Below are positions 2,630 to 27,522 of a stretch of DNA of 64,000 nucleotides, in pieces. Made by a program: the position numbers and the translations under genes. The stretch covers positions 9,939-73,938 of the forward strand of contig JAOUEW010000008.1 in the NCBI GenBank assembly GCA_029858505.1, in the 5' to 3' direction. Position 1 is the first letter of the stretch. Each line of letters starts with the position of its first letter. The DNA comes from Deltaproteobacteria bacterium (lineage in GTDB: Bacteria; SAR324; JACQKK01). The notes beneath the pieces are model-generated. The model searched no databases. It worked only from the letters and a program-made list of their open reading frames with translations, and was not told where the DNA came from.

Positions 2630-2638
2630 ACCCTCGCC

Positions 2639-4679: not shown

Positions 4680-4790
4680 CCCAACTGGGGTCAGGTGTTT
4701 TTTTCACGATGGTCTGATAACTTGGAATCAAACATCACGGTTTTCGGAAGAACCTTCTCGTATCCCCGTTTTATTTCCTTGAGAGCAACC

Positions 4791-6811: not shown

Positions 6812-6840
6812 TTGCGCTTGAGGATTCTTCTCCATTCCCC

Positions 6841-7332: not shown

Positions 7333-7340
7333 AAGTTGTT

Positions 7341-9851: not shown

Positions 9852-11207
9852 TCAACCCGCGGGTTCCTCCGCCGCTGGCTTGTCTTCAAAGGCCGAGGGC
9901 ATCAGGTTAAACGGCAGAATCTTAATGACCACCGGCAGAATCAACCCGCCCCCCGGCAGGGCAAAAATGGCCAAGGCCGGAATGGTTTTCAAAATATCGG
10001 CAATTTGCTCCTGAACCTTCTTTTTTTCATCAGGGGTCAGGGGGGTCTTGGTGGATTTCACCAGCAGAGCCGACAGTTCTTTGGTTTCGTTGATTTCCGT
10101 CACCAAGCGGTCCACGTTTTTCCGCACGGCGATGGCGGCCTTTTCCTTAAAGCGCTCTCCCACGTTCAGCAGATGGAACCGTTTTTTGAAGAACTGGAGT
10201 TTGTCTCCCTGGGCCAGCAAAAAGCTTTCCAGGGCAATGCGGCTTTGGGCCAGCTCGTCTTCCCACAGCCCCAGCCGCTCCACCACCCGGGAAAGCATGG
10301 CTTCCTCTTCTTCAGAAATAGAGCGGTCCAGCAGGGTCATCATCAGCACCACCTCCAGCAGATACCGGCGGATCACCCAAGGCATGTCGGGAATGTGGAT
10401 ATTCTCCAACGCCAAACCGTTTTCCATCTTCAGCCGAAACTCCAGCAGTTTTTCCTTGGAAAAGTGCGAGGTGCGGAAGAATTGGTCGATAATGCGTTTT
10501 TCCTCCGGCTCCACCACGGCGTTGGTGAAGGCCGCCATGATAATCAAGTTCAGCAGGGCTTCTCGCTGGGCGCCAATGCTTTGGTATACCTTGTCAATCA
10601 ACCCCTGGTTCAGTTCTTCACCCATCAGCACCAGCCGCTGCAGGCGCACGCAGGCCTGCAGGTCCACAAACATGAAGTTGTTGAAAAAGATTTGGTAGCT
10701 GAGATCCTTCCCCCCAGACACCCGGTAAATAAAATTTTGCTCAAAGCGGGTCAGTTCGTCGGGGGGGCCGAACATTTTGTGCTTCAATCGGGTGATGAAC
10801 CCGTCTTTGGGTTTGTAGATTTCTGGGGCCTTAAGGTAATAATGGCTCACCACATCGGTGGCCACCTGCAGGTAATCGGGATTGTAGTCGGGCATCCCAT
10901 CGGTCTGATAGATGTGATCCGTCACCAGCACGGCAAAGGTGGCATCCAGCAGGGTCAGCATCATCCGGTCCAGCACATCGTGATATTGGCTTTCCGGAAA
11001 CACCACGTCGGTAAAGGGGAGCTTCACCGGCGCCCCGTACACCAGCCCGGTGGGCTGCAAAAAATAATACACCGCCTGGTCCACCTCGTTGTGTACGCCA
11101 GAATCCTCCACCACCTTCACCCCCAGGGTGGGCAGCTTGGCGGGAAAGGGGTTTTTCCGCCGAAAAGCCAGGTATTGTGTAAACCAACCGTGTTTGCTGA
11201 ATTTCAT
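9852..11207 (-). CDS. LETM1-like domain protein.
   Basis: C-terminal IPALAIFALPGGGLILPVVIKILPFNLMPSAFE matches the LETM1 PFxxLLPVAxKLFPNMLPSTF signature. Start set at MKFSKHGW to avoid overlap with the folC start. Confidence 0.5.
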   Translation of the reverse strand: MKFSKHGWFTQYLAFRRKNPFPAKLPTLGVKVVEDSGVHNEVDQAVYYFLQPTGLVYGAPVKLPFTDVVFPESQYHDVLDRMMLTLLDATFAVLVTDHIYQTDGMPDYNPDYLQVATDVVSHYYLKAPEIYKPKDGFITRLKHKMFGPPDELTRFEQNFIYRVSGGKDLSYQIFFNNFMFVDLQACVRLQRLVLMGEELNQGLIDKVYQSIGAQREALLNLIIMAAFTNAVVEPEEKRIIDQFFRTSHFSKEKLLEFRLKMENGLALENIHIPDMPWVIRRYLLEVVLMMTLLDRSISEEEEAMLSRVVERLGLWEDELAQSRIALESFLLAQGDKLQFFKKRFHLLNVGERFKEKAAIAVRKNVDRLVTEINETKELSALLVKSTKTPLTPDEKKKVQEQIADILKTIPALAIFALPGGGLILPVVIKILPFNLMPSAFEDKPAAEEPAG

Positions 11208-11345
11208 GAATAAGTGTTCCCAAGTGGCAGGTGATTCCCCCCAGGGAAAACAGCGTTTGGAGACTTTGATTAGTATCCTAATTTGGCCCTGGGATTCAAG
11301 TTTTTTCCTCCCCCCGCCTTTTGGGCCGGGCAGCCGGGATAGGCC

Positions 11346-12761
11346 ATGAAACAAGACGCGTATCTATTCTGGCTGAACCGGCTGGAGAACCATGCCCAAT
11401 ACCGTCAGGTTCCCCATGGGGCGGACCAGGGGCGGCTGGCCCCCCTGGCCGCCTTGCTCCAGGCCCTGGAAAACCCCCACCAAGCCTTGCGGGTGGTGCA
11501 CTTGGCGGGAACCAACGGCAAAACCACCACCGCCCACCTGATTGCCCGGCTCTTGGCCAGGGAAACCGGCGGAGAACGGGTGGGGCTATATACCTCCCCC
11601 CACTTGGTCGACATCCGGGAACGCATCCAAATTCAGGGTAGGATGATCTCTCGCCGGGACTTTGTGGCGGCTTCTCGGGCGGTGTGGGGGGCGGCGGAAG
11701 AACTGGGCCTGCTGGGGGGAGAATCTTCTTCCCCCCGGCTAAGTTGGTTTGACCTGGTGACCGCCATGGGGCTGTGGCACTTTCGGCGGCGGGGAGCCGC
11801 CTGGGCCGTGCTGGAAACCGGCCTGGGGGGGCTGGCCGATGCCACCAACCTGGCCCCCAAAACCCTGTGCGTCCTCACCCCCATGGGGCTGGATCATGCC
11901 GCCGTGCTGGGGAACACCCTAGGGGCTATTGCCTGGCAGAAGGCGGGCATATTGGCGCCGGGGGTGCCGGTGGTGCTGGGCCCCCAGCCCCCAGAAGCCC
12001 AGCAGGTGGTGCAAGACCGGGCCGCCGCCCTGGGTTGCCCCATCATCCCCTGGGACCGGGTGAGCCTAGAGAAAACCGTGCCCCAACCCGCAAACCCCCA
12101 GCCGGTCCATCGCCAAAGCCAGCGGCTGAACATCACGGCCCGCTGGCCGGGGGGGGCCACCGCCAGCCGTTGGATTGAATCCGAGGGCTGGAATGAACCC
12201 TTCCGCTTGGCGGCCGCCACGGCCCTGTCTGCCGCGGAAGAACTGTTGGCCCCCCCCCGCAAGCCCCAGTCCCGGCTGGCCGCCGTGCTGGGCGGAGCCC
12301 TGCCCGGCCGTCAGACTTTTTTACCCCATTTGCGCCTAGCCAACGGGCACACCCTGCCCTGGCTGATGGTGGACGGCGGCCATAACCCCCCGGCCTTGGA
12401 AGCCCTAGCCCGGCGGCTGGAACACCGCCGGGGCTACACCCTGGTGTGGGGCATGTTGACCGACAAGTTGATCCCCGAAACAGAGCCGCCCCTGGCCCGG
12501 CTGATGGCGGGGGCCCGCCGGGTGCTGGCGGTTCCCCCGCCGGGGCCCCGCTCCCCGGCCCCTGGGGTGCTGGGGGAGATCACCCGCCGGTTGGCCCCGG
12601 CCAACCAGCCCGACCCCCTACCCCAGGAATTCCCCCGGCTGGAGGAGGCCCTGGCCCAGGCCCTGGCCGCTGGAGACCCGGTGGTGGTGGCGGGGTCCCT
12701 GTGGCTGGCGGGGGAGGCGTGGGCTTGGTTACAGAGCAACCAACGGCAAAAACCCGGTTGA
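11346..12761 (+). CDS. folC: Bifunctional folylpolyglutamate synthase / dihydrofolate synthase.
   Basis: Mur-ligase P-loop VVHLAGTNGKTTTAHL and overall FolC architecture (471 aa). Confidence 0.8.
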   Translation: MKQDAYLFWLNRLENHAQYRQVPHGADQGRLAPLAALLQALENPHQALRVVHLAGTNGKTTTAHLIARLLARETGGERVGLYTSPHLVDIRERIQIQGRMISRRDFVAASRAVWGAAEELGLLGGESSSPRLSWFDLVTAMGLWHFRRRGAAWAVLETGLGGLADATNLAPKTLCVLTPMGLDHAAVLGNTLGAIAWQKAGILAPGVPVVLGPQPPEAQQVVQDRAAALGCPIIPWDRVSLEKTVPQPANPQPVHRQSQRLNITARWPGGATASRWIESEGWNEPFRLAAATALSAAEELLAPPRKPQSRLAAVLGGALPGRQTFLPHLRLANGHTLPWLMVDGGHNPPALEALARRLEHRRGYTLVWGMLTDKLIPETEPPLARLMAGARRVLAVPPPGPRSPAPGVLGEITRRLAPANQPDPLPQEFPRLEEALAQALAAGDPVVVAGSLWLAGEAWAWLQSNQRQKPG

Positions 12762-15141: not shown

Positions 15142-17046
15142 ATGGGAACCATTCACCTGCTGGCCGACAACGTCATCAACCACATTGCCGCCGGTGAGGT
15201 GGTGGAACGCCCCGCCAGCGTGGTGAAAGAACTGCTGGAAAACGCCCTCGACGCCGGGGCCGACCGCATCACCGTGCTGTTGGAAGACGGCGGGCGGGAG
15301 TCCATCGTGGTGCTGGACAACGGCCGGGGCATGGACCCTGCCGACGCCCGGCTGGCCTGCACCCGCCACGCCACCAGCAAAATCTCTACCCCCGCCGACC
15401 TGGAGAAAGTGGCCACCCTGGGCTTTCGGGGAGAGGCCCTGGCCTCCATCGCCGCGGTATCTCGCTTCGAACTGCTCACTTGCGCCGATGAATCTCAGGG
15501 GGGCACCCGGATCAACATGGAAGGCGGCCGGGAGGTTTCTGTGGCCCCCCAGGGGTTTGCCCAAGGCACCCGGGTCACCGTTCGAGAGTTGTTTTTCAAC
15601 ACCCCGGCCCGTCGTAAGTTTTTACGGGTCGCCGCCACCGAACTACAGGCCGCCCAAAACCTAACCGCCACCCTGGCCCTGGCCCACACCACCGTGCATT
15701 TCACCCTGACCCACCATGGCCGGGTGCTGTATGACCTAACCCCCTGCGCCACCCTGGCCGAGCGGGCCTTCCAGGTGTTCGGCGGAGAGTTTGCCGAAGG
15801 CATGCTGCCCCTAGACGTGATCACCCCCCAACTGCGCATGGAGGGGGTGGTGTCGCTGCCCTCCCAGGCCAAATCCAGCCGCCGCTGGCAATATCTTTAC
15901 ATCAACCACCGCCCGGTGAAAAACGCCGGGCTGAACCACGCGGTGTACCAGGCCTACCGCACCCTGCTGATGAAGGACCGCCACCCGGCCTATATTCTCA
16001 AACTGTTCGTGGAGCCAGCGGAGGTAGACGTGAACGTTCACCCGGCCAAAACCGAGGTGCGCCTGCGCAACCCTCAATTGCTTCACACCTTGCTGGCCGA
16101 CAGGTTGCACCAAGTGTTGATGGACGGCGCCCGGCAGCGGGCCTTTGGCGAGAGTGATCCGGGGATTTCCCGCAGGCCCCCCCCGCCCCGGCCCAGCCAC
16201 CAAGCCCCGGCGGGCAGCCAGTTGGAGTTGACCCTGAAAGCCGCCCAGGAGCGGGTGGGCGAAAGCGCCCCAACGTCTTTCACTTCTCCCTCTGACCCTC
16301 ATCTCTCTAACCCAAACCCCATCAGCCCCAACCCCTCTCGCCTCCCAACCTCTCCCGCCCTGGCTTCTATTGCTGGGCCTGCGGGTTCTGACCCCCATCC
16401 CCTCACCGGAGAGGCCTTTCACTTTCAGCCCCTGCACCCCGCCCCGGCGGCAGAGGCACCCATGGGCGGGGGGCTGCGCCTGCTGGGCCAGCACGACCAA
16501 ACCTACCTGCTGGTGGCCAGGGGAGAAGATTTGCTGGTGGTGGACCAACACGCCGCCCACGAACGGGTGCTGTTCGAGGCCTATCGCACCCAGTACTACC
16601 AAGGCCGCCTGCAAAGCCAAACCTTCCTGGTGCCCCCCACCCTGGAACTGTCTCCGGCCAACAGCCTGCTGTTGGAACAATACCTGCCCCAATGGGAACG
16701 GCTGGGGTTTCAGCTGGAGCCCTTTGGGGGAACCACCTTTTTGGTGCGGGCAGTGCCCGCCCTGCTGGCCCGGGGAGATATCTCCGCCCTGGTGCTGGAT
16801 GTGCTGGACGACTTGGCCCTGTTTGGCAAAAGCGGCCGGGTAGAGGAAGTCATCAACGATATTTTGGAGCGGGTGGCCTGCCACGCCGCCGTGCGGGCCG
16901 GGCAGTCTTTGGCCAAGGAAGAAATGGAAAGCTTGGTGGCCCGGCTGGAGGGCCTGGACATGAACCTGTACTGCCCCCATGGCCGACCCGTGTGGGTGGA
17001 AATCTCCCAGCGGGAATTGGAGAAACGCTTCAAGCGAATCGTGTAA
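15142..17046 (+). CDS. mutL: DNA mismatch repair protein MutL.
   Basis: N-terminal GHKL ATPase (AAGEVVERPASVVKELLENALDAGA...LDNGRGM) and a C-terminal dimerisation domain. Confidence 0.9.
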   Translation: MGTIHLLADNVINHIAAGEVVERPASVVKELLENALDAGADRITVLLEDGGRESIVVLDNGRGMDPADARLACTRHATSKISTPADLEKVATLGFRGEALASIAAVSRFELLTCADESQGGTRINMEGGREVSVAPQGFAQGTRVTVRELFFNTPARRKFLRVAATELQAAQNLTATLALAHTTVHFTLTHHGRVLYDLTPCATLAERAFQVFGGEFAEGMLPLDVITPQLRMEGVVSLPSQAKSSRRWQYLYINHRPVKNAGLNHAVYQAYRTLLMKDRHPAYILKLFVEPAEVDVNVHPAKTEVRLRNPQLLHTLLADRLHQVLMDGARQRAFGESDPGISRRPPPPRPSHQAPAGSQLELTLKAAQERVGESAPTSFTSPSDPHLSNPNPISPNPSRLPTSPALASIAGPAGSDPHPLTGEAFHFQPLHPAPAAEAPMGGGLRLLGQHDQTYLLVARGEDLLVVDQHAAHERVLFEAYRTQYYQGRLQSQTFLVPPTLELSPANSLLLEQYLPQWERLGFQLEPFGGTTFLVRAVPALLARGDISALVLDVLDDLALFGKSGRVEEVINDILERVACHAAVRAGQSLAKEEMESLVARLEGLDMNLYCPHGRPVWVEISQRELEKRFKRIV

Positions 17047-17102
17047 ACCGACTCCCTCTATCACCTTGAATATTCAAAAAAATAGGACTAGGGTTGCGGT
17101 AG

Positions 17103-18683
17103 ATGGTCCGACCAGGAGGTCTCATGGACATTGCTCAGAACACCACCCTGCCTGTTTCCAAGGGTGATTCCACCCGAACCGCCCGTTTGATCTCCCGTGT
17201 TCTTGCCCCCCTCGATCGCCTCTTTCAACGCTGTTACGACTCTCCCTACAATCCGCTGTATCTGTCTGGGGCCCTGACCCTGTTCTTTCTGCTGCTGGTG
17301 CTGGTCACCGGCGCCTACCTGCTGATTTTCTATCGGGCGGGTTCTCCCTACGAGTCCATGGCGGCCATCCAAGAGCAAGTCTGGGGCGGCCGCTGGATCC
17401 GCGCCCTGCACCGCTATGCGTCAGACGCCGCCGTGGTGACGGCGGTGCTGCACATGCTGCGCATGTTTGCCCAGGGGCGCAGCTGGGGGCCCCGGGCCCT
17501 GGGGTGGATCACCGGGGTGGGCATGCTGGCCCTGCTGTGGGGTGTGGGGTGGACCGGCTATGTGCTGGTGTGGGACCAACACGGGTTGATCCTGGCCAAC
17601 CGGGGGGCCCGCATGCTAGACGCTCTTCCCCTGTTCTCCGAGCCCATCTCCCGCATGTTTGCCACCGGCCAGGTGGTGTATCACTTTTTTTTCTTCAACC
17701 TGTTTTTGCACATGGCCATTCCGCTGGTGATGGGGGCCCTGCTGTGGATGCACGTGATGCGGCTGGCCCGGTCGGTTCTGTTTCCTTCTCGGGGGTTGAT
17801 GTGGGGGTCGGGGCTGCTGCTTACCGGATTGTCTGTGGTTTGGCCAGCCCCCTTGGAAGGCCCCGCCGATGCCTTGTCCTCTGGCGGGCGGGTGGCGGTG
17901 GATGGGTTCTATACGTTTTGGCTGGGGTGGAATCTTTCCGGCGGGGCCCTGTGGTTGTTTTGGCTGGCCCTGTTGGGGGGGTTGACCGCCGTTCCCTGGC
18001 TGTTCCGGCCGGGCCTTTTGGCCCGCCCCAGGCCCGCCGTGGTGGATGAAGCCCATTGCGAGGGCTGCACCCAGTGCTATCAAGACTGCCCCTACGAGGC
18101 CATTCAAATGGTCGCGGTGGAAGGCCGAGAAAAACCGGTGGCCCGGGTGGACCCCGCCGTGTGCGTGGGCTGCGGCATCTGTTCCGGGTCGTGCAAGCCC
18201 ATGGTGATTGGCCCCCCAGAGCGGCGGGGCGGCCACCAAATTCGCCAAGCCCGGGCCCTTACCCAGGCCCACCCCCAAACCGTGGTGTGCCTGGCCTGCG
18301 ACAAAACCCTGGGGCGAAACCCCACCCTGCCCGTTGGCGTAACGTTATGGACCATCTCTTGCGGTGGAGAGATTCACGCCGACACGGTGGACGCCCTGTT
18401 GCGGCATGGGGCGGCGGGGGTGATGGTGGTGTCGTGCCCGCCAGAAAACTGCCAAAGCCGAGAGGGTGCCCGCTGGCTGGCGGCCCGCTGGGCGGGAGAA
18501 CGAGACATGCCCCTGCGGGCGAGGGTGGACCGCCGCCGCACCGCCTGGGTGACCCTGGAACCGGGAGACACCAAAACGCTGGCCAGGCTGGCCGCTCAGT
18601 TTCTAGACCGCCTGAACGAACCCGGCCTGCTGCCGGTCCGTGAGGAATCGGGCATCACGCCCACAGGAGAAACCCTGACGTGA
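17103..18683 (+). CDS. Fusion protein: cytochrome b (two-haem four-helix core) + 2x[4Fe-4S] ferredoxin + MvhD/FlpD-like domain.
   Basis: Cytochrome b signature RALHRYASDAAVVTAVLHMLRMF...GYVLVWDQ plus a His pair in helix D (HMAIPLVMGALLWMH). Ferredoxin motifs CEGCTQCYQDCP and CVGCGICSGSCKP. C-terminal VVCLACD...ISCGGE...VVSCPPENCQ resembles the hydrogenase iron-sulfur (delta) subunit. Confidence 0.65.
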   Translation: MVRPGGLMDIAQNTTLPVSKGDSTRTARLISRVLAPLDRLFQRCYDSPYNPLYLSGALTLFFLLLVLVTGAYLLIFYRAGSPYESMAAIQEQVWGGRWIRALHRYASDAAVVTAVLHMLRMFAQGRSWGPRALGWITGVGMLALLWGVGWTGYVLVWDQHGLILANRGARMLDALPLFSEPISRMFATGQVVYHFFFFNLFLHMAIPLVMGALLWMHVMRLARSVLFPSRGLMWGSGLLLTGLSVVWPAPLEGPADALSSGGRVAVDGFYTFWLGWNLSGGALWLFWLALLGGLTAVPWLFRPGLLARPRPAVVDEAHCEGCTQCYQDCPYEAIQMVAVEGREKPVARVDPAVCVGCGICSGSCKPMVIGPPERRGGHQIRQARALTQAHPQTVVCLACDKTLGRNPTLPVGVTLWTISCGGEIHADTVDALLRHGAAGVMVVSCPPENCQSREGARWLAARWAGERDMPLRARVDRRRTAWVTLEPGDTKTLARLAAQFLDRLNEPGLLPVREESGITPTGETLT

Positions 18684-19264
18684 AACGGGAACCGATCCAA
18701 GGACAGGCCGGGAAAATCTTGCTGGGGGGGCTGCTGGGATTGGGGCTGGCCATCGCCACGGCTTGGCTGTCGGCCTGGCCCGTGCAAATGGGCGACGACA
18801 CGCCCCGCCTGCGGGTGGCCTTCCGGTCGGCCCACCGCCAAACCCGGCTGTGCCGCCCCCCCACCACGGCGGAACTGGCCGGGGTGCCCGCCCACATGCG
18901 GCGGAAGGAACTCTGCCAAGCCTGGGAAATTCCCTATCGGCTGCGGATAGCGGTGGATGAACAGACCCTGGCCGATCATGAATTGAAGGGCGGCGGCATG
19001 CGGGGCGACCGGCCGGTATTTGTGGAGGAGGAATTCCCCCTGGTGCCGGGGGTGCACCGGGTGGCGGTGGCGTTTACCCCCCAGCCCCCAGAGCTTCCCG
19101 CCGAGGCCGCCGGGTGGCGCCCCGCGGACCGGGAACGATTTGTGGCGGAAGGCCGCCAAGCCCCCGCCTGGACAATCCACCGGCCGATCACCTTTACGCC
19201 AGGGCGGGTGGTGATGCTGTCGCTGGGCCAGCCCAGTGAATTTATTGTCACCGGCGAACAGTAA
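18680..19264 (+). CDS. Hypothetical membrane-anchored protein, translationally coupled to the cytochrome b fusion.
   Basis: GTG start overlaps the upstream stop. N-terminal TM helix. No family recognised. Confidence 0.45.
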   Translation: MKREPIQGQAGKILLGGLLGLGLAIATAWLSAWPVQMGDDTPRLRVAFRSAHRQTRLCRPPTTAELAGVPAHMRRKELCQAWEIPYRLRIAVDEQTLADHELKGGGMRGDRPVFVEEEFPLVPGVHRVAVAFTPQPPELPAEAAGWRPADRERFVAEGRQAPAWTIHRPITFTPGRVVMLSLGQPSEFIVTGEQ

Positions 19265-19405
19265 TTTGGATTGCCGCCTGAAAGGCGGCGGGGAGGGGTA
19301 TTTCAAAGAGAGATCATACGGCAGCATGAATGGAGCCTGAACAAACAAAACCATGGTTTCACCCATGATCTGGGACAACCCCCAGAAAGAAAATAGGAGA
19401 CATCT

Positions 19406-19479
19406 GCATAACCAGGGTTTTTGCCGTGAAAAGGGGGAATGGGAGATGGGAAAAAATAGGTTATGCAGAGGTCTCTATA
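19406..19479 (+). promoter_or_regulatory. Copy 2 of the conserved upstream motif, embedded in an inverted-repeat structure about 170 bp upstream of the oxidase operon.
   Basis: TGCATAACCAGGGTTTTTGCCGTGAAAAGGGGGAATGGGAG. Arms CTGCATAACC / GGTTATGCAG flank the core. The distal arm GGTTATGCAGAGGTCTCTATA is the reverse complement of TATAGA(CA)GAGACCTtTGCATAACC at copy 1. Confidence 0.5.
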
Positions 19480-19605
19480 TGAGAACGAGGAGAAAATAAA
19501 TTGAAACGGGTTGAACACCCACGGAACGAACCGGAACAGGGTTCCCCGGATCGTCCGCCATGAACTGGAACCCCGCCATCAGCCACGCTGAGAAAGGAAC
19601 GTGTT

Positions 19606-19770
19606 ATGGCCAATAAATCCAACCCATCTGGAGGGCAGCCCCCCCTGGGCCAGCGGTTGTTCGACAGCCCCTTCCTGCTGCTGGCCGCGGGCCTGGTCAT
19701 CATGCTGGTGTTCTATACCGCCTGGGGAATCATCGAATTGGTCACCATGCCCCAGGCCTTGCTCCCCTAA
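19606..19770 (+). CDS. Small (54 aa) membrane protein immediately upstream of coxB; possible oxidase-associated subunit. Below the ORF-track length cut-off.
   Basis: ATG with RBS-like GAAAGGAAC 8 bp upstream. Encodes MANKSNPSGGQPPLGQRLFDSPFLLLAAGLVIMLVFYTAWGIIELVTMPQALLP with one TM helix. Ends 25 bp before coxB. Confidence 0.45.
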   Translation: MANKSNPSGGQPPLGQRLFDSPFLLLAAGLVIMLVFYTAWGIIELVTMPQALLP

Positions 19771-19794: not shown

Positions 19795-20370
19795 ATGCAC
19801 AGTGGAATCGTCTCTCCCCAGGGCGTTTGGTGGAAACCCGCGGCCAAGCCGGAACGGCGGTGGGTTCTCATCTCTCTCGTCTGGTGTTTAATTCTGTTCG
19901 CCATGATGCCCCTGTGGCACTGGAAAGGCGGCCAAAACCCTTCCGGCATCCGGGGGCGCGTGGATCCCGCGGTGTTTAGCGAGCGGGTCGAGCGCTTCAA
20001 CAAACAGTATCAGGTGGGCGAAGACAACGGCATTCCGGTGGTGCAACCGCCGCCGGGCAGCCATGCCTACTTGATGGGAAGCCAGTTCCAGTGGAGCAGC
20101 GTGCTCAAACTGGAAAAAGGCGCCAAGTACATCCTGCATTTGTCTTCTCAAGACGTGAACCACGGCTTCAGCCTGTACCCGGTGAACCTGAACTTTCAGG
20201 TGGTGCCGGGCTACGATTATGGGTTGGAGATTGTGCCGAACCAAGCGGGAGAATACCGCATCGTTTGCAACGAGTTCTGCGGCATTGGCCATCACACCAT
20301 GATTGGCAAGGTGATTGTGGTGGAACCCGGCCAAGGACATGAACCCCAACCGAAAGGAGGCGCGAAATGA
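19795..20370 (+). CDS. coxB: Cytochrome c oxidase subunit II, short ba3-type (single TM plus CuA cupredoxin).
   Basis: CuA ligand pattern H...CNEFCGIGHHTM. About 190 aa with no cytochrome c domain. Confidence 0.8.
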   Translation: MHSGIVSPQGVWWKPAAKPERRWVLISLVWCLILFAMMPLWHWKGGQNPSGIRGRVDPAVFSERVERFNKQYQVGEDNGIPVVQPPPGSHAYLMGSQFQWSSVLKLEKGAKYILHLSSQDVNHGFSLYPVNLNFQVVPGYDYGLEIVPNQAGEYRIVCNEFCGIGHHTMIGKVIVVEPGQGHEPQPKGGAK

Positions 20371-22082
20371 GCAGCCCAACCCAATTTCGCACCTGCGGGG
20401 TCACCGGTCTGAAGGTGGACCGCAACGCGGAGAACCTGCTGAAGATCAACGCGGTGGTGGCGGTGGTGATGTTCACCATCGGGGTGGTGGCGGCCCTGAT
20501 GATTGTGCTGACCCGTTGGCAGGCCGTGCATTTGCTGCCCGCCGATTGGTATTACCGCCTGTTAACGGCCCATGGGCTGAACATGCTGATCTTCTTTATT
20601 ATCTTTTTTGAAATGGCCATTTTGTATTTTGCTGGACCCATTCTGCTGAACGCCCGGCTGCCAGCGCCCAAGGTGGGGTGGCTGGCCTTTGGGCTGATGG
20701 TGGCGGGGGCTGGCTTGGTGGAATGGATGGTGTTCGCCGGCCGGGCCGATGTCACCTTTACCTCCTACCCGCCCCTGCGGGCCGACCCCCTTTACTACCT
20801 GGGGATCATCCTGTTCGCCGTGGGCGCGCTGGTGGTGGTGATGTTGTTCTTCGCCACGCTGGTGGTGGCCAAAAGGGAAAAAACCTACCAGGGATCGGTT
20901 CCCCTGGTGACCTTCGGGGCCATTGCCGCGGCCATCATCGCGGTGATCACCCTGCTGCACGGGGCCATGGTGTTCATCCCCACCTTACTGTGGTCCATGG
21001 GGCTGATCCCCATGGATGCCGAATTCTACCGGCTGGTCTTCTGGGGCCTGGGTCACTCTTCCCAGCAGATCAACGTGGCGGCCATGGTGGCCATTTGGTA
21101 CTTCTTGGCGGCCATGACCATGGGCGGCGTGGTGCTGAACGAAAAAATCAGCCGCATCGCCTTTGTGTTCTATGTGCTGTTTATCTCCATGGCTTCGGCC
21201 CACCACCTGCTGGTGGACCCCGGGTTTTCACCGGCGTGGAAGGTGTGGAACACCAGCTACTTTATGTACATGGCGGTGCTGGCCAGCATGATTCACGGCT
21301 TCACCGTTCCGGCTGGGATGGAACTGGGGATGCGCCTGCGGGGCTTTAACAAAGGCCGCTTTGAATGGCTAACCCGGGCCCCTTGGGGCGATCCTGGTTT
21401 TTCGGGGATGATCCTGTCGTTGTTCATCTTCGGCTTTCTGGGCGGCATCACCGGGGTGGCCATCGGCACCGAGCAAATCAACATTATTGCCCACAACACC
21501 ATGCGGATTCCGGGGCACTTCCACGCCACGGTGGTGGGGGGCACGGCTTTGGCGTTCATGGCCGTCACCTACTACGTCATTCCCCTCATCTTCCGCAAGG
21601 AAGTGGCCCTGTGGCCCTTGGCCAAGATTCAGCCCTACCTGTTCGGGGGTGGAATCACCATCATGTCGGTGGGCATGATTCTGCAAGGCTTCTTTGGGGT
21701 GCCCCGCCGCCATTGGGACATCTCCGGAGCCGACAGCCCCTTCCCCGCCAGCTACCCGCCGGTGGTGGATGTGCTGCAAGCGGTCATGGCCTTGGGCGGC
21801 GTCATCGCCTTTTTGGGCGGCCTGATTTTCGTTTTGGTTGCCGTGCTGTCGGTGTTCTTTGGCAAGCCCTTGACGGACCAGGCCGTGAAAAACGGCACGG
21901 CCAAGGTGCCCCAGGGGGTGCTGCGGCTGCCGCCTCAAGCGCACGATGAAGCCAAAGCCTTGAAGGCCCACGAGGAAGGAACCCCCGGAACGGTCATTCT
22001 GGTCACGGTGTTCTTCCTGTGTTTCGTGCTGTATTACCTGACCAACTGGCAAACCCTGTCGAAACTGTGGCAGGTGGGTTAA
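20367..22082 (+). CDS. coxA: Haem-copper oxidase subunit I, B-family (ba3-like).
   Basis: 571 aa, 12 or more TM helices, His ligands in the HHL... and GHFHA contexts. Start overlaps the coxB stop. Confidence 0.75.
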   Translation: MSSPTQFRTCGVTGLKVDRNAENLLKINAVVAVVMFTIGVVAALMIVLTRWQAVHLLPADWYYRLLTAHGLNMLIFFIIFFEMAILYFAGPILLNARLPAPKVGWLAFGLMVAGAGLVEWMVFAGRADVTFTSYPPLRADPLYYLGIILFAVGALVVVMLFFATLVVAKREKTYQGSVPLVTFGAIAAAIIAVITLLHGAMVFIPTLLWSMGLIPMDAEFYRLVFWGLGHSSQQINVAAMVAIWYFLAAMTMGGVVLNEKISRIAFVFYVLFISMASAHHLLVDPGFSPAWKVWNTSYFMYMAVLASMIHGFTVPAGMELGMRLRGFNKGRFEWLTRAPWGDPGFSGMILSLFIFGFLGGITGVAIGTEQINIIAHNTMRIPGHFHATVVGGTALAFMAVTYYVIPLIFRKEVALWPLAKIQPYLFGGGITIMSVGMILQGFFGVPRRHWDISGADSPFPASYPPVVDVLQAVMALGGVIAFLGGLIFVLVAVLSVFFGKPLTDQAVKNGTAKVPQGVLRLPPQAHDEAKALKAHEEGTPGTVILVTVFFLCFVLYYLTNWQTLSKLWQVG

Positions 22083-22182: not shown

Positions 22183-23217
22183 TTGCTTCACCCCATCGAG
22201 ATTCCTTTTCTCTTTTTCCGGAGCCGCCCCTTGACTCGTTCTCTGCCCCCGTTGTGGTTTTACCTGTTGGTAATGGCCTTGTTCGCGGCGCTGGCCAGCC
22301 CCGCCCAGGCGGCCCCCACCGGCAGCGTGACCGGACGGCTGACCGGTGACGCCGACCAGGGCTCCATGGCCGGCAAAACCGTGGTGCTGCTGCAAATGCG
22401 CATTGGCCCCCAGGGTCAACCCCAGCCGGTGGGCCCCCCAGACCGCACACAAACCGGCCCCGACGGCGGTTTTGTGTTTGAGAACGTGCAGATTCAGGTA
22501 GGCACGGTGTTTCAGGTGGGCAGCCGCACCCGGGGCGGAGAACTCACCGCCACCCGCCCCTTTACCTTTCCTCCTCGCGGGGGGCGGATCACCATGAACC
22601 TGCATTTGGCCGAGCGCAAAGCACCGGTGGATGCCGAAAGCCCGCCGGTGTGGTTTCAACGGGTGATCGTGGCGGTGGAAGCCAGGAGCGGCCAGGCCGC
22701 CGTGACCGAAGTCATTCACCTGGTGAACAACACGGGCAAACTGGCCTTTGGGCCGGAACATCCCCTGCGGATTCCCATTGCCCCCGGCACCGACACCCTG
22801 GAACCGGCCGAAGGTTTGGATGAGAGCAACTTGAGAAAAGAGGGCCAAGAAGCCGTCATCACCCGCTATATGCCCGCGGGGCGGACGGTGATGATTTTTG
22901 CCTACATCACCAACACCCCCCTGGGCTCTCTCAACTTGGACCGCCGCTACCCCTACCCCGTAGAGGATTTCGCCATCTATTCCCCCGCCCAAGACAAACT
23001 GATCATTGACGGCACCGGGTTGCTGCCCAGGGCTCCGGAAAACATTCAAAATACCTTGTTTCAAGTGTGGGGCCGCGCCAATATTCTAGCCGACACCGAG
23101 ATCAGCGCCAGCGTGCAGGGGTTGCAGCCTAGCCAATGGATGTTCGGCTTGCCGGCCCTGCTGTTCTTGCTGGTCATGGGTGGGTTGGTGTTCCGCTACC
23201 TGCGGCAAACCAAGTAG
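22183..23217 (+). CDS. Hypothetical exported protein: N-terminal CarboxypepD_reg-like beta domain and a C-terminal TM anchor.
   Basis: Signal peptide ending ASPAQA. GSVTGRLTGDADQGSMAGKTVVLLQ...TGPDGGFVFENV module. C-terminal hydrophobic helix WMFGLPALLFLLVMGGLVF. Confidence 0.5.
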   Translation: MLHPIEIPFLFFRSRPLTRSLPPLWFYLLVMALFAALASPAQAAPTGSVTGRLTGDADQGSMAGKTVVLLQMRIGPQGQPQPVGPPDRTQTGPDGGFVFENVQIQVGTVFQVGSRTRGGELTATRPFTFPPRGGRITMNLHLAERKAPVDAESPPVWFQRVIVAVEARSGQAAVTEVIHLVNNTGKLAFGPEHPLRIPIAPGTDTLEPAEGLDESNLRKEGQEAVITRYMPAGRTVMIFAYITNTPLGSLNLDRRYPYPVEDFAIYSPAQDKLIIDGTGLLPRAPENIQNTLFQVWGRANILADTEISASVQGLQPSQWMFGLPALLFLLVMGGLVFRYLRQTK

Positions 23218-23403: not shown

Positions 23404-24453
23404 TTACTCCACCCAGGTGATTTGACCCTTCAGGGCTTCCACGTTGGCCGGGCGGTATTCCGGATCGGCGGCCATTTTTTGTTTCACGCTCACGTGCAGG
23501 TTGGGGGAGCGGGCCGGGTTCAGGCGGCCGTCTTCCAGCACCCCAATTTCCCGAGGCTTTTGGGTCCAACCCGCGGGCAGCACCCGGTGGGGGTAAATAT
23601 CGGCGGCGGGGTTGGGGTGAATCTGTTGGAAAGCGTTGTCTTTAAAGGTCAGCCCCAGGGCCTGGGCTTTCTTCATCATATACGCCAGCGATAGGTCCGA
23701 CAGCCCCTCCTGGGGCACGCCCCCGCCCACGTCCTCGTGGCCGCCGGGGAACCACACTTCTTCCACCTTGTCTTGGCGGTTCATCTGGGTGGGGGTTAAA
23801 ATTTCCCGGTTCTCATCCACCGCCACCAGGTGCAGGGCCTGCTTAATGTTGGGGGCCACCGTGAGGTTTTTGAACAGGTTGATCTTTTGAAAGGGGCCGT
23901 TTGGAATGCCAAAGGCTGCCATGGTCTCCCAAACGCCCACCAATTCAATGTCCACCGGACGAAACCCGCCCCGGTTTTCAAAGGCCACCACCTCGCCCCG
24001 CATGTTTTTCACAATGCGAATGGCTTCGGGAATGCCCCGCTGATGAATTTTCTGGGCCAGCATCCGGGCGATGGCCGCCCCCCGGGAAAACCCAAACAGA
24101 AAAATGCGGTCGCCGGGGCGGTAGTTCGTCACCAACACCACATAGGCTTGGTCGCGCAGCAAGTCGGCGCTGGCGCCGTCTCCTCCCAGGGGGGGGCCGC
24201 CCACAGAGGCCTCGGCCGGGGCCCCAACCCCTGGAAAATAGCGGGCGAACTGCCGGGAAGAATCGGCCAGCAGGCCGTAGAGTTTCAACACGTTGCTGGC
24301 CGAGCCGTTGTTTTTTTCATCTCCGGCGGGCAGGTTCCAGGTGCCATCCACGCACAGAACAAAATTCCGCGGGGATTCCTGCATTTGCCCTAAGTTGGGG
24401 TAATAGGTGTACTCGTGGCGCATGGTGTGGGTAGGAATAAGGGTGTAAGCCAA
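23404..24453 (-). CDS. DUF2235 alpha/beta hydrolase (same family as T6SS Tle1-type phospholipase effectors).
   Basis: FVLCVDGTWN near the N-terminus and a GFSRGAA nucleophile elbow are typical of DUF2235. Confidence 0.65.
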   Translation of the reverse strand: MAYTLIPTHTMRHEYTYYPNLGQMQESPRNFVLCVDGTWNLPAGDEKNNGSASNVLKLYGLLADSSRQFARYFPGVGAPAEASVGGPPLGGDGASADLLRDQAYVVLVTNYRPGDRIFLFGFSRGAAIARMLAQKIHQRGIPEAIRIVKNMRGEVVAFENRGGFRPVDIELVGVWETMAAFGIPNGPFQKINLFKNLTVAPNIKQALHLVAVDENREILTPTQMNRQDKVEEVWFPGGHEDVGGGVPQEGLSDLSLAYMMKKAQALGLTFKDNAFQQIHPNPAADIYPHRVLPAGWTQKPREIGVLEDGRLNPARSPNLHVSVKQKMAADPEYRPANVEALKGQITWVE

Positions 24454-25877: not shown

Positions 25878-26405
25878 TCAGGGGGCGTCGATCAACCCCA
25901 GGGCAGCAAGCCCCTGGCGATAAGCATCGCGCTTGAAGGGCACCACTTCTTCCGGCGCTTGGGCCACGTACACCCAGCGGTAATCATCAAACTCTGGGGG
26001 GTGGTGCTGAAAATGAATGGCCGTGACGGGCACTTTCAGCCGTACTAAAAACCAATACTGAGATTGACCCGTGAAGCGGGCCAAGGCGGGCTTGCCCTCG
26101 GTCAACCGCCGCAGCACATCGGGGGGGTAAAGGTAGGGGATGGGCTGGGGGGTTTGCTTCACCACTTCCACTTCGTCGGTGCCAATCTCTTCTTTCAGTT
26201 CGCGCAGCAAGGCTTGCAGGGGGGTTTCGCCCGGGTCCATGCCCCCTTGAGGAAACTGCCAGCGATATTCTCCCAGGCCGTCTCCCACCCGGCGGAACAT
26301 CAGCACCTCGTTCCCGCCTTCGCTGGCCACCACGGCCAGCACCGCCGGGCGCAAATGGGGGTTGTCTGCCTGGAGAGTCACGGACTGGGGGGTTGGGTTA
26401 GTCAT
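25878..26405 (-). CDS. NUDIX hydrolase (RppH/NudH-like).
   Basis: Nudix box GGMDPGETPLQALLRELKEEIG. Confidence 0.8.
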   Translation of the reverse strand: MTNPTPQSVTLQADNPHLRPAVLAVVASEGGNEVLMFRRVGDGLGEYRWQFPQGGMDPGETPLQALLRELKEEIGTDEVEVVKQTPQPIPYLYPPDVLRRLTEGKPALARFTGQSQYWFLVRLKVPVTAIHFQHHPPEFDDYRWVYVAQAPEEVVPFKRDAYRQGLAALGLIDAP

Positions 26406-27522
26406 CGGGGTATCTGCTTTTAATGGCCACCACGTGGTCTATATTGCCCAAGAATTGTTCCACCAAGGTGGGGTCAAAATGGGTTCCCGCCATTTTACGC
26501 ATCATGCTCACCGCCTCGTACCACGAGAAAGCGTCTTTGTACACGCGGCGGTTGGTGAGAGCGTCGAACACATCGCATATGGCCGTGATGCGGGCCTCGA
26601 GGGGGATGTTTTCCCCCTTCAATCCTTTGGGATAGCCCGTGCCGTCCCATTTTTCGTGGTGGTGCAGGGCCACCATCGCGGCCATTTCCAACAGGGGCAC
26701 CTGGGACCCCCGCAAAATTTGATAGCCGATGTCCACGTGAGTTTTCATCAATTCATATTCCGCCGGGGTGAGTTTTTCCGGCTTGTGCAGCACGTCGTCG
26801 GGAATGCCGATTTTCCCAATGTCGTGCAGGGCGGAAGCGGGGCGGATCATCCGCTGGGACGGCTCGTCCATGCCAGCCAGTTCAGCCAAGTATTGAGAGT
26901 AATGACTCATCCGCTGCACGTGGCGGTGGGTTTCGTTGTCGCGGAATTCGGCCACCCGCATCAGGCGGTTCACGATTTCCTCCTGAGCATATACCAAGTT
27001 CTGCTGGGTGTTTTTCAGAGTCACCAGGGTGGTACGCAGGTCTTCCGTCCGTTCCTGAATATCCAGTTCCAGGTTCACGCGTGCTTGGCGCTGGGCCATT
27101 TCCAACTGCCTTCGGCGCAGGGCGTTCGTCACGTTGATGATGAGCTCGATGGTCTTGAAGGGTTTGATTAAGTACCCATAGGCCCCTAAGGCCAGCACCT
27201 TGTCCGAGTTTTCCCGCTGATCGGAGGCGGTGACCATGATGGTGGCCATGTCGGGGAAGACTTTCAGGGTGCGTTCAATCAGTTCCAGGCCGCTCAACCC
27301 CGGCATGTTGATGTCGCACAGCATCAAGTCAAACGTATGCTCGCTTAACTGGGCCAGGGCATCCAAGGCATTCACCGCCTCAACGGGGGCAAAGCCCTCC
27401 CGACGCAAAATATCGCAGATCATTTTGCGCACCAGCCGGTCGTCATCCACCACCAGTGTCCGCACCGATTGGGGCGGCGCCAAAGGCGCTTCGGCGGGGG
27501 GCTGGGGGTTCGGTGGTTCCAT
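26398..27522 (-). CDS. Response regulator with an HD-GYP phosphodiesterase domain.
   Basis: Receiver LVVDDDRLVRKMICDIL...CDINMPGLSG, then HDIGKIGIPDDVL...HHHEKWDGTGYPKGL (HD-GYP). Confidence 0.85.
   Translation of the reverse strand: MEPPNPQPPAEAPLAPPQSVRTLVVDDDRLVRKMICDILRREGFAPVEAVNALDALAQLSEHTFDLMLCDINMPGLSGLELIERTLKVFPDMATIMVTASDQRENSDKVLALGAYGYLIKPFKTIELIINVTNALRRRQLEMAQRQARVNLELDIQERTEDLRTTLVTLKNTQQNLVYAQEEIVNRLMRVAEFRDNETHRHVQRMSHYSQYLAELAGMDEPSQRMIRPASALHDIGKIGIPDDVLHKPEKLTPAEYELMKTHVDIGYQILRGSQVPLLEMAAMVALHHHEKWDGTGYPKGLKGENIPLEARITAICDVFDALTNRRVYKDAFSWYEAVSMMRKMAGTHFDPTLVEQFLGNIDHVVAIKSRYPDD

Follow-up and report, generated by a model that had tools for sequence, protein, structure and literature searches.

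A cytochrome b-iron-sulfur fusion protein and its membrane partner encoded beside eNOR: a candidate dedicated electron-transfer module for NO reduction

The window, that is the whole stretch of 64,000 nucleotides that was analyzed, carries a pair of overlapping genes followed by the genes of a haem-copper enzyme. The following features were delineated:

17124..18683, + strand: fusion gene, 519 aa; cytochrome b, 2x[4Fe-4S] and MvhD-like domain
17175..18002, + strand: membrane domain of the fusion, aa 18-293; N-terminal surface helix and six predicted transmembrane (TM) helices
18036..18221, + strand: 2x[4Fe-4S] ferredoxin domain of the fusion, predicted cytoplasmic, aa 305-366
18282..18614, + strand: MvhD/FlpD-like domain of the fusion, aa 387-497; assigned from Pfam, NCBIfam, MvhD alignments and Cys conservation
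18680..19264, + strand: partner gene, 194 aa; its GTG start overlaps the TGA stop of the fusion as GTGA
19273..19289, + strand: GC-rich hairpin GCCGCC tgaaa GGCGGC, read from the sequence, 9 nt past the partner stop
19606..19770, + strand: 54-aa single-helix protein (gene call), first gene of the eNOR cluster
19795..20370, + strand: eNOR subunit II; one TM helix and a cupredoxin domain whose CuA motif, CNEFCGIGHHTM, is intact
20367..22082, + strand: eNOR-type haem-copper subunit I (Pfam COX1 7e-64; alignment; Gln signature)
22231..23217, + strand: 328-aa secreted-looking protein (gene call), directly past subunit I

The initial annotation covered positions 17103-19264. The open reading frame of the fusion, 17103-18683 on the forward strand, is present in the ORF list and its translation, but its start is most likely ATG 17124 rather than the upstream ATG 17103, which would give a protein of 526 aa. 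ATG 17124 is preceded by a ribosome-binding site (AGGAGG, 17114-17119), is the start in the NCBI/JGI gene calls and is also where the database protein P0001, identical to the fusion, begins. The three-domain architecture proposed from the sequence was confirmed by a Pfam scan, which returned Cytochrome_B (2.8e-16), a Fer4 dicluster and FlpD (4.5e-11). Similarly, a family profile run against solved structures matched cytochrome b6 (7.5e-24), the C-terminal ferredoxin domain of HdrA (7.8e-14) and MvhD (1.5e-7, nearly full length). The current annotation of the module, "hydrogenase iron-sulfur subunit," is a misannotation.

A frameshift or assembly artefact joining a cytochrome b gene to an Fe-S gene had no point in its favor and was ruled out, its probability being negligible. 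The uninterrupted ORF also occurs on independent contigs of the source organism, the single-ORF architecture recurs in the genomes of at least 593 species, most of them Gemmatimonadota, and in more than 1100 database proteins, and the AF2 model of the fusion is a confident single chain.

The membrane domain falls within the bc1/b6 type of cytochrome b. All sequence and structure matches were of this type, and Pfam and NCBIfam scans of the domain gave no NarI/HdrE-type match. It has the four-helix bundle with two bis-His haem sites of Pfam PF00033, and its six TM helices are equivalents of cytochrome b helices A to F. Both bis-His motifs reported initially are there, H96/H110 and H196/H210 in the 519-aa numbering, each a His-x13-His, in helices B and D; H96 and H196 are the ligands of the p-side haem and H110 and H210 those of the n-side haem. 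In 85 homologues, all four His are invariant and TGYVxxWD is conserved. Structural superposition covered 247 to 281 residues of bc1 cytochrome b versus 176 of b6 alone, with the two extra helices lying on helices E and F and an ef loop present. The cd loop of the p-side is strongly conserved (16 of 34 columns at least 90% identical), and an "xDxF" motif stands where bc1 has PEWY. Its Asp260, at least 90% conserved, was aligned with the PEWY Glu in a single hhalign run (probability, 89%) against a hand-entered sequence. Pfam Cytochrom_B_C gave no match in the fusion, and helices G and H are absent. The position aligned with the haem cn Cys (CxGG) is variable and never a Cys (NPLY-x-SGA versus NIFY-C-LGG). 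By homology to cytochrome b, the N terminus and the end of helix F should lie on the n-side, and the cytochrome b is predicted to span the membrane with its two bis-His haems while its C terminus would continue in the cytoplasm with two [4Fe-4S] clusters and one MvhD-type cluster.

The eight Cys of the ferredoxin domain (312, 315, 318, 322, 347, 350, 353, and 357) are all invariant. They had been described as two canonical CxxCxxCxxxCP clusters, which is accurate for the first, but the second reads CxxCxxCxxxCxP and is not strictly a "CP" motif. The homology to MvhD/FlpD was upheld, the score for Pfam FlpD PF02662 being 43.3 bits against a cut-off of 22.3 bits. The domain aligns with the MvhD chains 8rvv_F and 9sw2_D, and profile matches to 9sw2_D, 8rvu_F, and 7bkb_F reached 1e-6 to 1e-7 over almost the full length. 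NCBIfam matched the HdrA2 C-terminal region, and the succession of ferredoxin and MvhD domains is that of HdrA2 residues 568-770. Of its conserved Cys, C392, C413, and C438 show no variation, whereas C443 is at least 90% conserved; three of these four align with Cys of MvhD. The four are candidate ligands of the MvhD-type cluster, probably a [2Fe-2S]. At the place of the N-terminal CCxxC of MvhD, only one Cys is conserved in the fusion. No Mvh/Frh-type hydrogenase or HdrA gene was found in the window neighborhood or among the conserved neighbors.

The downstream gene had been proposed to encode a dedicated partner, and this is corroborated by the GTGA overlap at 18680 and by Rosetta-stone fusions: among 111 long cluster representatives, 107 carry the partner as a C-terminal extension of the same polypeptide, in the order MvhD-TM-beta-sandwich. 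The partner is predicted to add one N-terminal TM helix and a periplasmic beta-sandwich to the unit; a periplasmic location of this domain agrees with the basic stretch at the N terminus, the TM helix, and the Cys pair. In the aligned sets, C58 and C79 do not vary, and H72, M73, R74, and an RGDRP motif are nearly invariant. The Cys pair is missing in the one Armatimonadota long form read (P0186), and the loose pattern CR...P-x-H-M-R...C had no match in 62 of 108 fused forms. Since a single-sequence homologue search with the partner returned only itself, homologues were found with a profile built from locus-derived orthologues. A fold search gave generic beta-sandwich matches and no Rieske, cupredoxin, or cytochrome fold. 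Because of this lack of a recognizable redox-cofactor fold, we dropped the idea that the partner is a redox carrier replacing the Rieske protein. Rare variants, P0317 and P0318, have a cytochrome c domain at their C terminus; such a c-type cytochrome, fused on in a few relatives, speaks for periplasmic output.

Past the partner stop, the hairpin at 19273..19289 is possibly a transcript end or processing site ahead of a 340-nt, A+T-richer spacer; the terminator scan was silent on it because it lacks a T-run. A promoter scan found nothing. The palindrome TTGAATATTCAA at 17066-17077, unique in the window, is not above chance once mismatches are allowed.

We then turn to the haem-copper enzyme. 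The gene of the 54-aa protein is kept upstream of subunit II in 70 loci as well as on the Thermomicrobium and Defluviimonas plasmids; by position and size, the protein resembles subunit IIa of ba3-type enzymes. Subunit II gave partial matches to Pfam COX2 and NCBIfam CoxB, and its CuA motif is conserved in all neighbor loci. Subunit I had been taken for a B-family O2 reductase, and this identification fell. The cross-linked Tyr is missing: GLGHSSQQ puts a Gln at its position, HSSQQ aligning with HPVVY of the B-family structure 7deg_A, while all six metal-ligand His are kept. Likewise, GH[SAP][SA]QQ was found in 68/68 neighboring subunit I genes. A B-family-related subunit I with six His and a Gln at the Tyr position is the criterion for eNOR (PMC8756737, section 2.7.1 and Table A4). 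By its Gln signature, its six His, and its CuA subunit II, gene 20367-22082 is classified as eNOR-type, which makes NO reduction, and not O2 respiration, the biological context. Genes of Thermus and Thermomicrobium share 45 to 48% identity with this subunit I and have a GHGAQQ motif, and a Thermus sequence is among the eNOR homologues (PMC8756737). Homologues of the CuA subunit have been reported for eNOR (Murali et al. 2024), and the one enzyme for which NO reductase activity without O2 reduction has been demonstrated is that of Rhodothermus marinus (PMC11214002). The eNOR, too, is currently misannotated, as "cbb3-type oxidase." The 328-aa protein, a doubtful member of the system, occupies the place that SCO1 has in most relatives; it had no Pfam/NCBIfam match and no homologue in any related locus.

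Surveying spread and neighborhood, as the initial annotation had suggested, showed the fusion to be widespread with a near-constant neighbor, but that neighbor is eNOR and not the B-family oxidase anticipated. The small-II-I eNOR genes adjoin the fusion and partner in approximately 73 of 75 informative genome loci. Two loci (L033 and L060) have no eNOR upstream, and their contigs end just downstream; they were therefore counted as uninformative and not as counter-examples. In the reverse direction, well-flanked metagenome loci of the same eNOR subclade, found via subunit I, contained the fusion in 19 of 21 cases. L165 and L166 are true exceptions, in which two molybdopterin oxidoreductases come after eNOR and SCO1 and the fusion is missing. 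With these two close eNOR loci and the eNOR-type enzymes of Thermus and Thermomicrobium, which also occur without the module, the latter is not universally required. On a Defluviimonas plasmid, small-II-I-cyoE-SCO-fusion-partner-hemerythrin form a single co-directional operon.

The context in relatives relates to NO: NirK is encoded next to eNOR, the NnrS gene overlaps that of the fusion, and a Crp/Fnr regulator (L089) or a NirK-cytochrome c (L088) lies near the module. An Rrf2 regulator occupies the divergent intergenic region in 60/83 loci; its match being at superfamily level only, we do not assign it to NsrR and claim no NO sensing. SCO1 was present in 61/83 loci, and some loci have thioredoxin or hemerythrin genes downstream of the partner. 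The reported absence of Rieske and cytochrome c1/f genes was verified within ±10 kb and in the other large window ORFs scanned, and there was no Rieske gene among the conserved neighbors in more than 80 loci. The window cluster has no c-type cytochrome either, which leaves the CuA of eNOR without another local donor. No dehydrogenase, hydrogenase, HdrA-like partner, or other cytoplasmic donor is conserved nearby in related loci.

A widespread gene pair almost always found beside eNOR is probably its dedicated, so far uncharacterized, electron-transfer module. Our preferred reading, to which we assign a probability of roughly 50%, is that genes 17124-18683 and 18680-19264 form one membrane redox unit that is dedicated to eNOR and supplies it with electrons. 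Its parts differ in strength. We are fairly sure that the pair is genetically dedicated to eNOR and NO metabolism, and we propose the donor role and the outward direction tentatively, at slightly less than even odds. As predicted from the sequence, fusion and partner would make a Rieske-less wire of five redox centers running from the cytoplasm to the periplasmic face. The entry point of the electrons would be the cytoplasmic Fe-S end, quinol at the p-side pocket that has been kept, or both. From there, they would move via the haems of the n-side and the p-side and leave in the periplasm for the CuA of eNOR subunit II, either directly, in a supercomplex docked via the partner, or through a c-type cytochrome. 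Here, we infer both the direction of flow through the Fe-S part and quinone binding by the cytochrome b. The NO reductase would thereby gain an electron supply of its own, independent of bc1 or alternative complex III. Against this donor reading, outward export of electrons would waste membrane potential, and Fe-S clusters are NO sensitive. In its favor, the Ferrigenium proteome under denitrifying conditions included the similar cytochrome b/Fe-S proteins from the eNOR operon of that organism (10.64898/2026.01.22.701106). A separate idea, that the module replaces haem A synthase, arose from Thermomicrobium, where eNOR comes with a 600-aa haem O synthase but lacks the module, whereas module carriers have a short haem O synthase only; it was rejected, as neither chemistry nor homology supports it and a search with the N-terminal half of the Thermomicrobium synthase gave no identification.

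Electrons could also run inward. The module would then be a quinol oxidase, working as a redox loop or by bifurcation: quinol would be oxidized at the Qo-like p-side pocket, one electron going to the very high-potential eNOR/CuA and the other via the haems to the cytoplasmic Fe-S chain and a ferredoxin- or NAD(P)+-linked acceptor, so that NO reduction drives an otherwise uphill reduction. The fold kept through helices E and F with the ef loop, the conserved cd loop, and the Asp aligned with the PEWY Glu speak for this, but that alignment is the single run described above, and the pocket lacks a Rieske protein and any other evident primary acceptor of electrons. Precedents exist in QmoABC, a cytochrome b-FeS fusion with an MvhD-like domain that takes quinol electrons inward (PMC3333476), in the NAD(P)-binding Fe-S subunits on anammox Rieske/cytochrome b complexes (PMC5600118), and in the Ferrigenium eNOR operon, with its cytochrome b-FeS-FAD-NADH and cytochrome b-FeS proteins, for which a quinol:NAD+ oxidoreductase, essentially the same proposal, has been put forward (10.64898/2026.01.22.701106). 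The fusion family, however, has no flavin or NAD(P) domain, and no cytoplasmic acceptor is conserved in related loci. Moreover, most carriers belong to the Gemmatimonadota, a largely heterotrophic group in which reverse electron flow would serve no evident purpose. We consider inward flow unlikely overall. In its specific form as a Rieske-less, NO-driven bifurcating quinol oxidase, in which the extreme potential of NO reduction, via CuA, draws one quinol electron outward while the second crosses the two haems and enters the Fe-S/MvhD chain to make low-potential cytoplasmic reductant (ferredoxin/NAD(P)H level), it is decidedly unlikely.

Two further readings take the module out of the catalytic cycle or away from eNOR. 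It has a slim chance of being a maturation or maintenance factor that carries reducing equivalents across the membrane, keeping the CuA-site or Sco Cys and copper reduced, inserting haem or cofactors, or repairing eNOR under NO stress. Assembly genes do surround it (SCO1 as above and, in Defluviimonas, genes for haem O synthase and SCO immediately before it), as do the thioredoxin or hemerythrin genes past the partner in some loci, and MsrPQ is a precedent for transmembrane reductant delivery by haem b in periplasmic repair. The conserved periplasmic Cys pair of the partner would suit such a role, but it is not universal (P0186), and the cytochrome c-fused variants point to ordinary electron transfer. 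Furthermore, a chaperone would hardly call for a wire of five centers with conserved p-side loops of the bc type, and known CuA maturation relies on thiol-disulfide proteins and not on haem/Fe-S wires. More of a long shot is the framing of the initial annotation, a general respiratory entry that passes low-potential cytoplasmic electrons to the quinone pool as a ferredoxin:quinone reductase on a b6 scaffold, with no more than an indirect benefit to a neighboring O2 reductase of the B family. The architecture, in which a ferredoxin domain is joined covalently to a b6-like cytochrome on its n-side, is compatible with this and analogous to the ferredoxin input proposed at the b6f n-side (PMC5600118). 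However, the neighbor is no O2 reductase by the Tyr criterion, and the near-obligate two-way linkage to one eNOR subclade and to NirK/NnrS would be unexpected. Since a CuA-type eNOR is not expected to oxidize quinol, a quinone-reducing module would not explain the linkage.

The enzyme served would matter. eNOR is a recently validated, N2O-producing NO reductase, reported to exceed all other nor types in abundance and transcription in estuarine metagenomes (PMC13592168), and we have found a near-obligate companion for a large eNOR subclade, spread over at least 593 species, mostly of the soil-abundant Gemmatimonadota. If the module is the donor, it would add a new branch to NO reduction, be it respiratory or detoxifying, change how the energy yield of denitrification is modeled, and provide a pair of marker genes for annotation. 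The module also lends itself to testing whether bc complexes arose from cytochrome b anchors of cytoplasmic oxidoreductases. The bifurcating reading, if true, would mean that energy is conserved at the NO step in a way unknown for any NOR and would offer a living example of that proposed ancestral bc state. Literature searches combining FlpD/MvhD, cytochrome b, and NOR found no description of the fusion family; RME88945.1, listed with cytochrome c, b6, and FlpD domains (PMC8756737, Table A3), is likewise in keeping with periplasmic output.

Compared to known systems, the fusion shares with the cytochrome b of bc1/b6f the fold, the His-x13-His ligation, helices E and F, and the ef loop, and it has b6-like motifs before helix A (NxxY-x-xG), after helix B (PRxLxW), and after helix C (TGYxLxWD). 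Unlike these complexes, it lacks Rieske, cytochrome c1/f, helices G and H, and the haem cn Cys, has "xDxF" for PEWY, carries a C-terminal cytoplasmic Fe-S extension and, unlike free-standing cytochrome b, is genetically tied to an NO reductase. Its ferredoxin-then-MvhD order and aligned Cys are those of the HdrA2 C-terminal module and of MvhD in Mvh/Hdr, but here the module hangs on a membrane cytochrome and is not accompanied by an HdrA flavoprotein, HdrBC, or a hydrogenase. The Rieske/cytochrome b complexes of anammox bacteria and planctomycetes likewise combine a bc-type cytochrome b with a cytoplasmic Fe-S oxidoreductase in N-oxide metabolism, but they keep Rieske and c-type cytochromes, and their cytoplasmic part is a separate flavoprotein subunit (PMC5600118). 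The only prior notice of the association that we found is a 2026 preprint on Ferrigenium straubiae, whose eNOR operon encodes proteins with cytochrome b plus [Fe-S] domains, haem O synthase, and sco1; its authors suggest a supercomplex with eNOR and see the genes as unusual Ferrigenium markers (10.64898/2026.01.22.701106). We presume these cytochrome b/Fe-S genes, likened by description, to be orthologous to the fusion; one of the proteins differs in also carrying FAD and NADH domains, and the preprint describes no MvhD domain, partner, fused forms, or wide distribution. In QmoC/QmoB and NarI-NarH-type anchors, too, one polypeptide holds both a dihaem cytochrome b in the membrane and an Fe-S electron-transfer domain in the cytoplasm, and Qmo has an MvhD-like domain and connects cytoplasmic redox partners with quinone or the membrane (PMC3333476). 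Their cytochrome, however, is of the HdrE/NarI type, of another fold and family, and the domain order differs; in addition, Qmo serves the cytoplasmic APS reductase, whereas the fusion adjoins a periplasm-facing haem-copper enzyme. Functionally, there is an analogy with NOX/ferric reductases and MsrQ, in which an N-terminal six-helix dihaem membrane domain precedes, or is coupled to, a domain for electron input in the cytoplasm and the acceptor is outside. These use flavin/NAD(P)H input and an unrelated membrane fold, and no homology was detected. Overall, by analogy, the logic of the module would resemble that of the NOX/MsrQ exporters, with parts from cytochrome b6 and HdrA2/MvhD.

The open reading frame of the initial annotation was present on the forward strand, but its start at 17103 was not retained. 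The ATG at 17124 is better, with an AGGAGG at 17114-17119, and in the database comparison it is also where an identical protein of 519 aa (P0001) begins. P0001 belongs to the MAG of a "Deltaproteobacteria bacterium", and its NCBI annotation reads "cytochrome b N-terminal domain-containing protein"; other MAG records name the fusion "hydrogenase iron-sulfur subunit" or "ferredoxin". A frameshift artefact joining two genes, raised at the outset, was excluded, as the same single-ORF architecture was recovered by database search in >1100 proteins and in at least 593 species-level genomes. The window fusion was an outlier: its nearest relatives are only about 50% identical to it, so that by this measure it is a divergent branch of the family. 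Taxon names follow the MAG records throughout. Its C-terminal tail (18659-18680) has no counterpart of the nearly invariant cysteine found in the consensus I-D-L-x-x-E-C-E of at least 90% of homologues.

Three Pfam domains were found in the fusion; their coordinates are in 526-aa numbering, whereas the ligand positions given below are in 519-aa numbering.

Residues 51-222: Cytochrome_B (E 2.8e-16)
Residues 312-365: Fer4 dicluster domain
Residues 400-506: FlpD (E 4.5e-11, exceeding the curated cut-off)

When 85 homologues were aligned, the haem-ligand histidines H96, H110, H196 and H210, the eight cysteines of both [4Fe-4S] motifs and cysteines C392, C413, C438 and C443 of the MvhD-like domain were invariant or nearly so. 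The p-side cd loop ranked among the most strongly conserved regions of the protein. When the family profile was compared with all PDB sequences, cytochrome b6 came first (7.5e-24), bc1 cytochromes b next, followed by HdrA through its C-terminal ferredoxin domain (7.8e-14) and by MvhD chains, matched almost end to end (1.5e-7). The best partial NCBIfam matches were short Rieske-less and b6-type cytochromes b (ExtP, b6) and, for the C-terminal half, the ferredoxin+MvhD part at the C terminus of HdrA2. The fusion is thus a member of both the cytochrome b/b6 superfamily and the FlpD family, in agreement with the initial assignment and not with a NarI- or HdrE-like cytochrome. Its AlphaFold2 model was confident (pLDDT 86.3, pTM 0.85). 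Furthermore, a conserved aspartate aligned with the glutamate of PEWY in a bovine reference sequence that may be approximate; a Qo-like p-side pocket could be retained as a candidate quinol site.

The downstream gene (18680-19264; 194 aa), predicted to encode a transmembrane helix and a periplasmic beta-sandwich, had been proposed as a dedicated partner on the grounds of its GTG start, which overlaps the fusion stop codon (GTGA). This proposal was borne out: in 74 related loci, a partner homologue lies directly 3' of the fusion, and the two genes usually overlap by the same 4 nt. Conserved elements of the partner are a P-x-H-M-R loop, flanked by a cysteine pair (C58/C79), and an RGDRP motif. 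Additionally, an exhaustive representative search found that 111 of the top 150 cluster representatives are at least 600 aa long, and in 107 of these 111 the extra C-terminal ~170 residues are the partner domain (hmmsearch, E ~1e-40). Judging from these representatives, fusion and partner form a single polypeptide across most of the family's sequence diversity, which shows, by homology, that both window genes belong to one unit. The domain order of the long forms (cytochrome b, ferredoxin, MvhD, transmembrane helix, beta-sandwich) fixes the predicted topology, with cytoplasmic Fe-S domains and a periplasmic beta-sandwich. Two of the representatives (P0317, P0318) carry a c-type cytochrome domain at the C terminus beyond the partner domain; a protein matching these variants appears, uncommented, in a table of PMC8756737. 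The long fusion of an Armatimonadota contig (L089) has a partner domain devoid of the cysteine pair.

Downstream of the module, formed by fusion and partner, lie the following genes.

19606-19770: one-helix protein, 54 aa
19795-20370: CuA subunit II
20367-22082: haem-copper subunit I
22231-23217, forward strand: orphan ORF, 328 aa

The initial annotation had described this enzyme as a B-family oxidase. B-family enzymes were indeed the closest PDB matches of subunit I, and all six histidine ligands and the CuA motif are intact. However, its HSSQQ aligned with HPVVY of the B-family enzymes, placing a glutamine at the tyrosine of the His-Tyr cofactor. By the criterion of Hemp & Gennis, as used in PMC8756737, and of Murali et al. 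2024, an enzyme without this tyrosine is a NO reductase, and glutamine at the site denotes the eNOR family; the eNOR of Rhodothermus marinus reduces NO, not O2 (PMC11214002). On the basis of the glutamine signature and similarity, subunit I is therefore assigned to the eNOR family. The orphan ORF has a signal-peptide-like N terminus and directly follows subunit I, where relatives have SCO1; it had no Pfam or NCBIfam match and no homologue in any related locus.

We then determined how tightly module and eNOR are linked. Among the 80 top-ranking genome loci of the fusion search, together with loci retrieved by exact look-up, the three eNOR genes adjoin fusion and partner in about 73 of 75 informative loci, a count that depends on the chosen flank thresholds; the remaining two end just downstream. 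All 68 subunit I genes of these loci carry GH[SAP][SA]QQ. Rrf2 was present in 60/83 loci and SCO1 in 61/83. In most relatives the two units diverge from a single short intergenic region with an Rrf2 gene, the usual layout in Gemmatimonadota being Rrf2, the three eNOR genes and SCO1 divergent from fusion and partner. In the window both units are in tandem, and neither SCO1 nor Rrf2 occurs anywhere in the 64 kb.

In the reverse direction, we scanned metagenomes with eNOR subunit I (relatives at 67-76% identity), counting only loci with at least 2.5 kb upstream and 4 kb downstream. By these thresholds, on which this count too depends, the fusion was present in 19 of 21 loci, mostly directly after SCO1 on the same strand; the two exceptions (L165, L166) have two molybdopterin enzymes in its place. 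A Defluviimonas plasmid (L085, NZ_CP156080.1) carries one operon of the three eNOR genes, haem O synthase, SCO, fusion, partner and hemerythrin. A 9.3-Mb genome (L088, GCA_942493285.1) has the eNOR genes, SCO1 and a long fusion, with a NirK-cytochrome c gene nearby. In L089, a Crp/Fnr-type regulator precedes NnrS (1012-2298), which overlaps the start of the long fusion (2285-4453), and this unit is convergent with NirK, directly 5' of the eNOR genes, SCO1, hemerythrin and cytochrome c. The module is absent from the more distant eNOR-type clusters of Thermus and Thermomicrobium plasmids (GHGAQQ motif, 45-48% identity), so it belongs to one large eNOR subclade rather than to all eNORs.

Several of these loci showed further features. 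The L088 cluster contains two tandem COX1-family genes (3821-5308 and 6164-7909; 495 and 581 aa), close to a UbiA-family gene and to the NirK fused to cytochrome c domains. On the Thermus thermophilus plasmid pTthSNM6-6b (L087, NZ_AP025614.1), the module-less cluster adjoins Rrf2, DUF542 (ScdA-like), multicopper oxidase, cytochrome P460 and cytochrome c genes, and by this gene content looks like a NO/N-oxide island. On the Thermomicrobium roseum megaplasmid (L086, NC_011961.1), a 600-aa "haem O synthase" (9817-11619) follows subunit I; its CyoE/CtaB match is confined to the C-terminal half, and its N-terminal 300 aa may be CtaA-like. In loci such as L085, L086 and L087, the annotation of subunit II is often "hypothetical" or "cytochrome".

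In the window, a 340-nt A+T-richer spacer (19265-19605), with a GC hairpin at its start (19273-19289), separates the partner from the eNOR genes, which suggests that module and eNOR genes form two tandem transcription units. Some 50 nt 5' of the fusion start lies the perfect 12-nt palindrome TTGAATATTCAA (17066-17077), which has no second copy in the window; it was not significant within the window once mismatches were allowed, and no similar site was found ahead of the eNOR genes. In the product of the MutL gene immediately upstream (15142-17046, forward strand), the N- and C-terminal domains are joined by a long low-complexity linker rich in Pro and Ser. Other neighbours encode an O2-independent HemN-type radical SAM enzyme (28564-29934), a T6SS Tle1-like protein (23404-24453) and a response regulator with an HD-GYP-type domain (26398-27522), and the remaining genes are housekeeping (ValRS, citrate synthase, SerA, LptF/G, SurA-like). 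No denitrification genes besides the eNOR cluster were seen in the 64-kb window.

The module is predicted to hold five redox centres in a line: the MvhD-type cluster and both [4Fe-4S] clusters on the cytoplasmic side, then the n-side haem and, towards the periplasmic face, the p-side haem. It is also predicted to bear a periplasmic appendage, and its genetic coupling to eNOR and NO-related genes is tight in both directions. We infer that it is the electron-transfer partner of eNOR. We favor delivery of electrons to CuA of eNOR at the periplasmic face, because the eNOR cluster otherwise encodes no CuA donor, because of the conservation of the p-side cd loop and because the classical donor of CuA, a periplasmic cytochrome c, forms the C terminus of some variants (P0317, P0318). 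The electrons could enter at the cytoplasmic Fe-S end and be exported in a NOX/MsrQ-like manner, or quinol could supply them at the putative Qo-like pocket with its conserved aspartate. No cytoplasmic partner gene for the MvhD-like domain was conserved among neighbor genes across related loci.

In the main rival reading, electrons run the other way in the cytoplasmic branch: oxidation of quinol would pass one electron to eNOR and one inward. Such quinol splitting was put forward in a May 2026 Ferrigenium preprint (bioRxiv 10.64898/2026.01.22.701106) for two cytochrome b/Fe-S genes of an eNOR operon, one of which has FAD/NADH domains; for the module we consider it unlikely. A role in maturation, entertained because SCO1 and haem O synthase share operons with the module, seems less probable still.

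Compared with bc1/b6f complexes, the module is missing the defining Rieske protein, cytochrome c1/f and haem cn cysteine, the first two as initially noted, and compared with Mvh/Hdr systems it is missing the hydrogenase and HdrA. Functionally, QmoC-type cytochrome b-FeS anchors (PMC3333476) and anammox bc complexes with cytoplasmic oxidoreductase subunits (PMC5600118) are its closest counterparts. By its predicted domains, the module is of an already known type, a membrane cytochrome b/Fe-S electron-transfer module, of real interest for denitrification bioenergetics. The Ferrigenium preprint is the sole explicit earlier notice of an eNOR association that we found, and it treats the genes as a peculiarity of the genus. 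What appears to be new is the two-way linkage with eNOR across the family, the recognition of the MvhD domain, the partner with its Rosetta-stone fusion, the variants ending in cytochrome c and the dominance of the fusion family in Gemmatimonadota.
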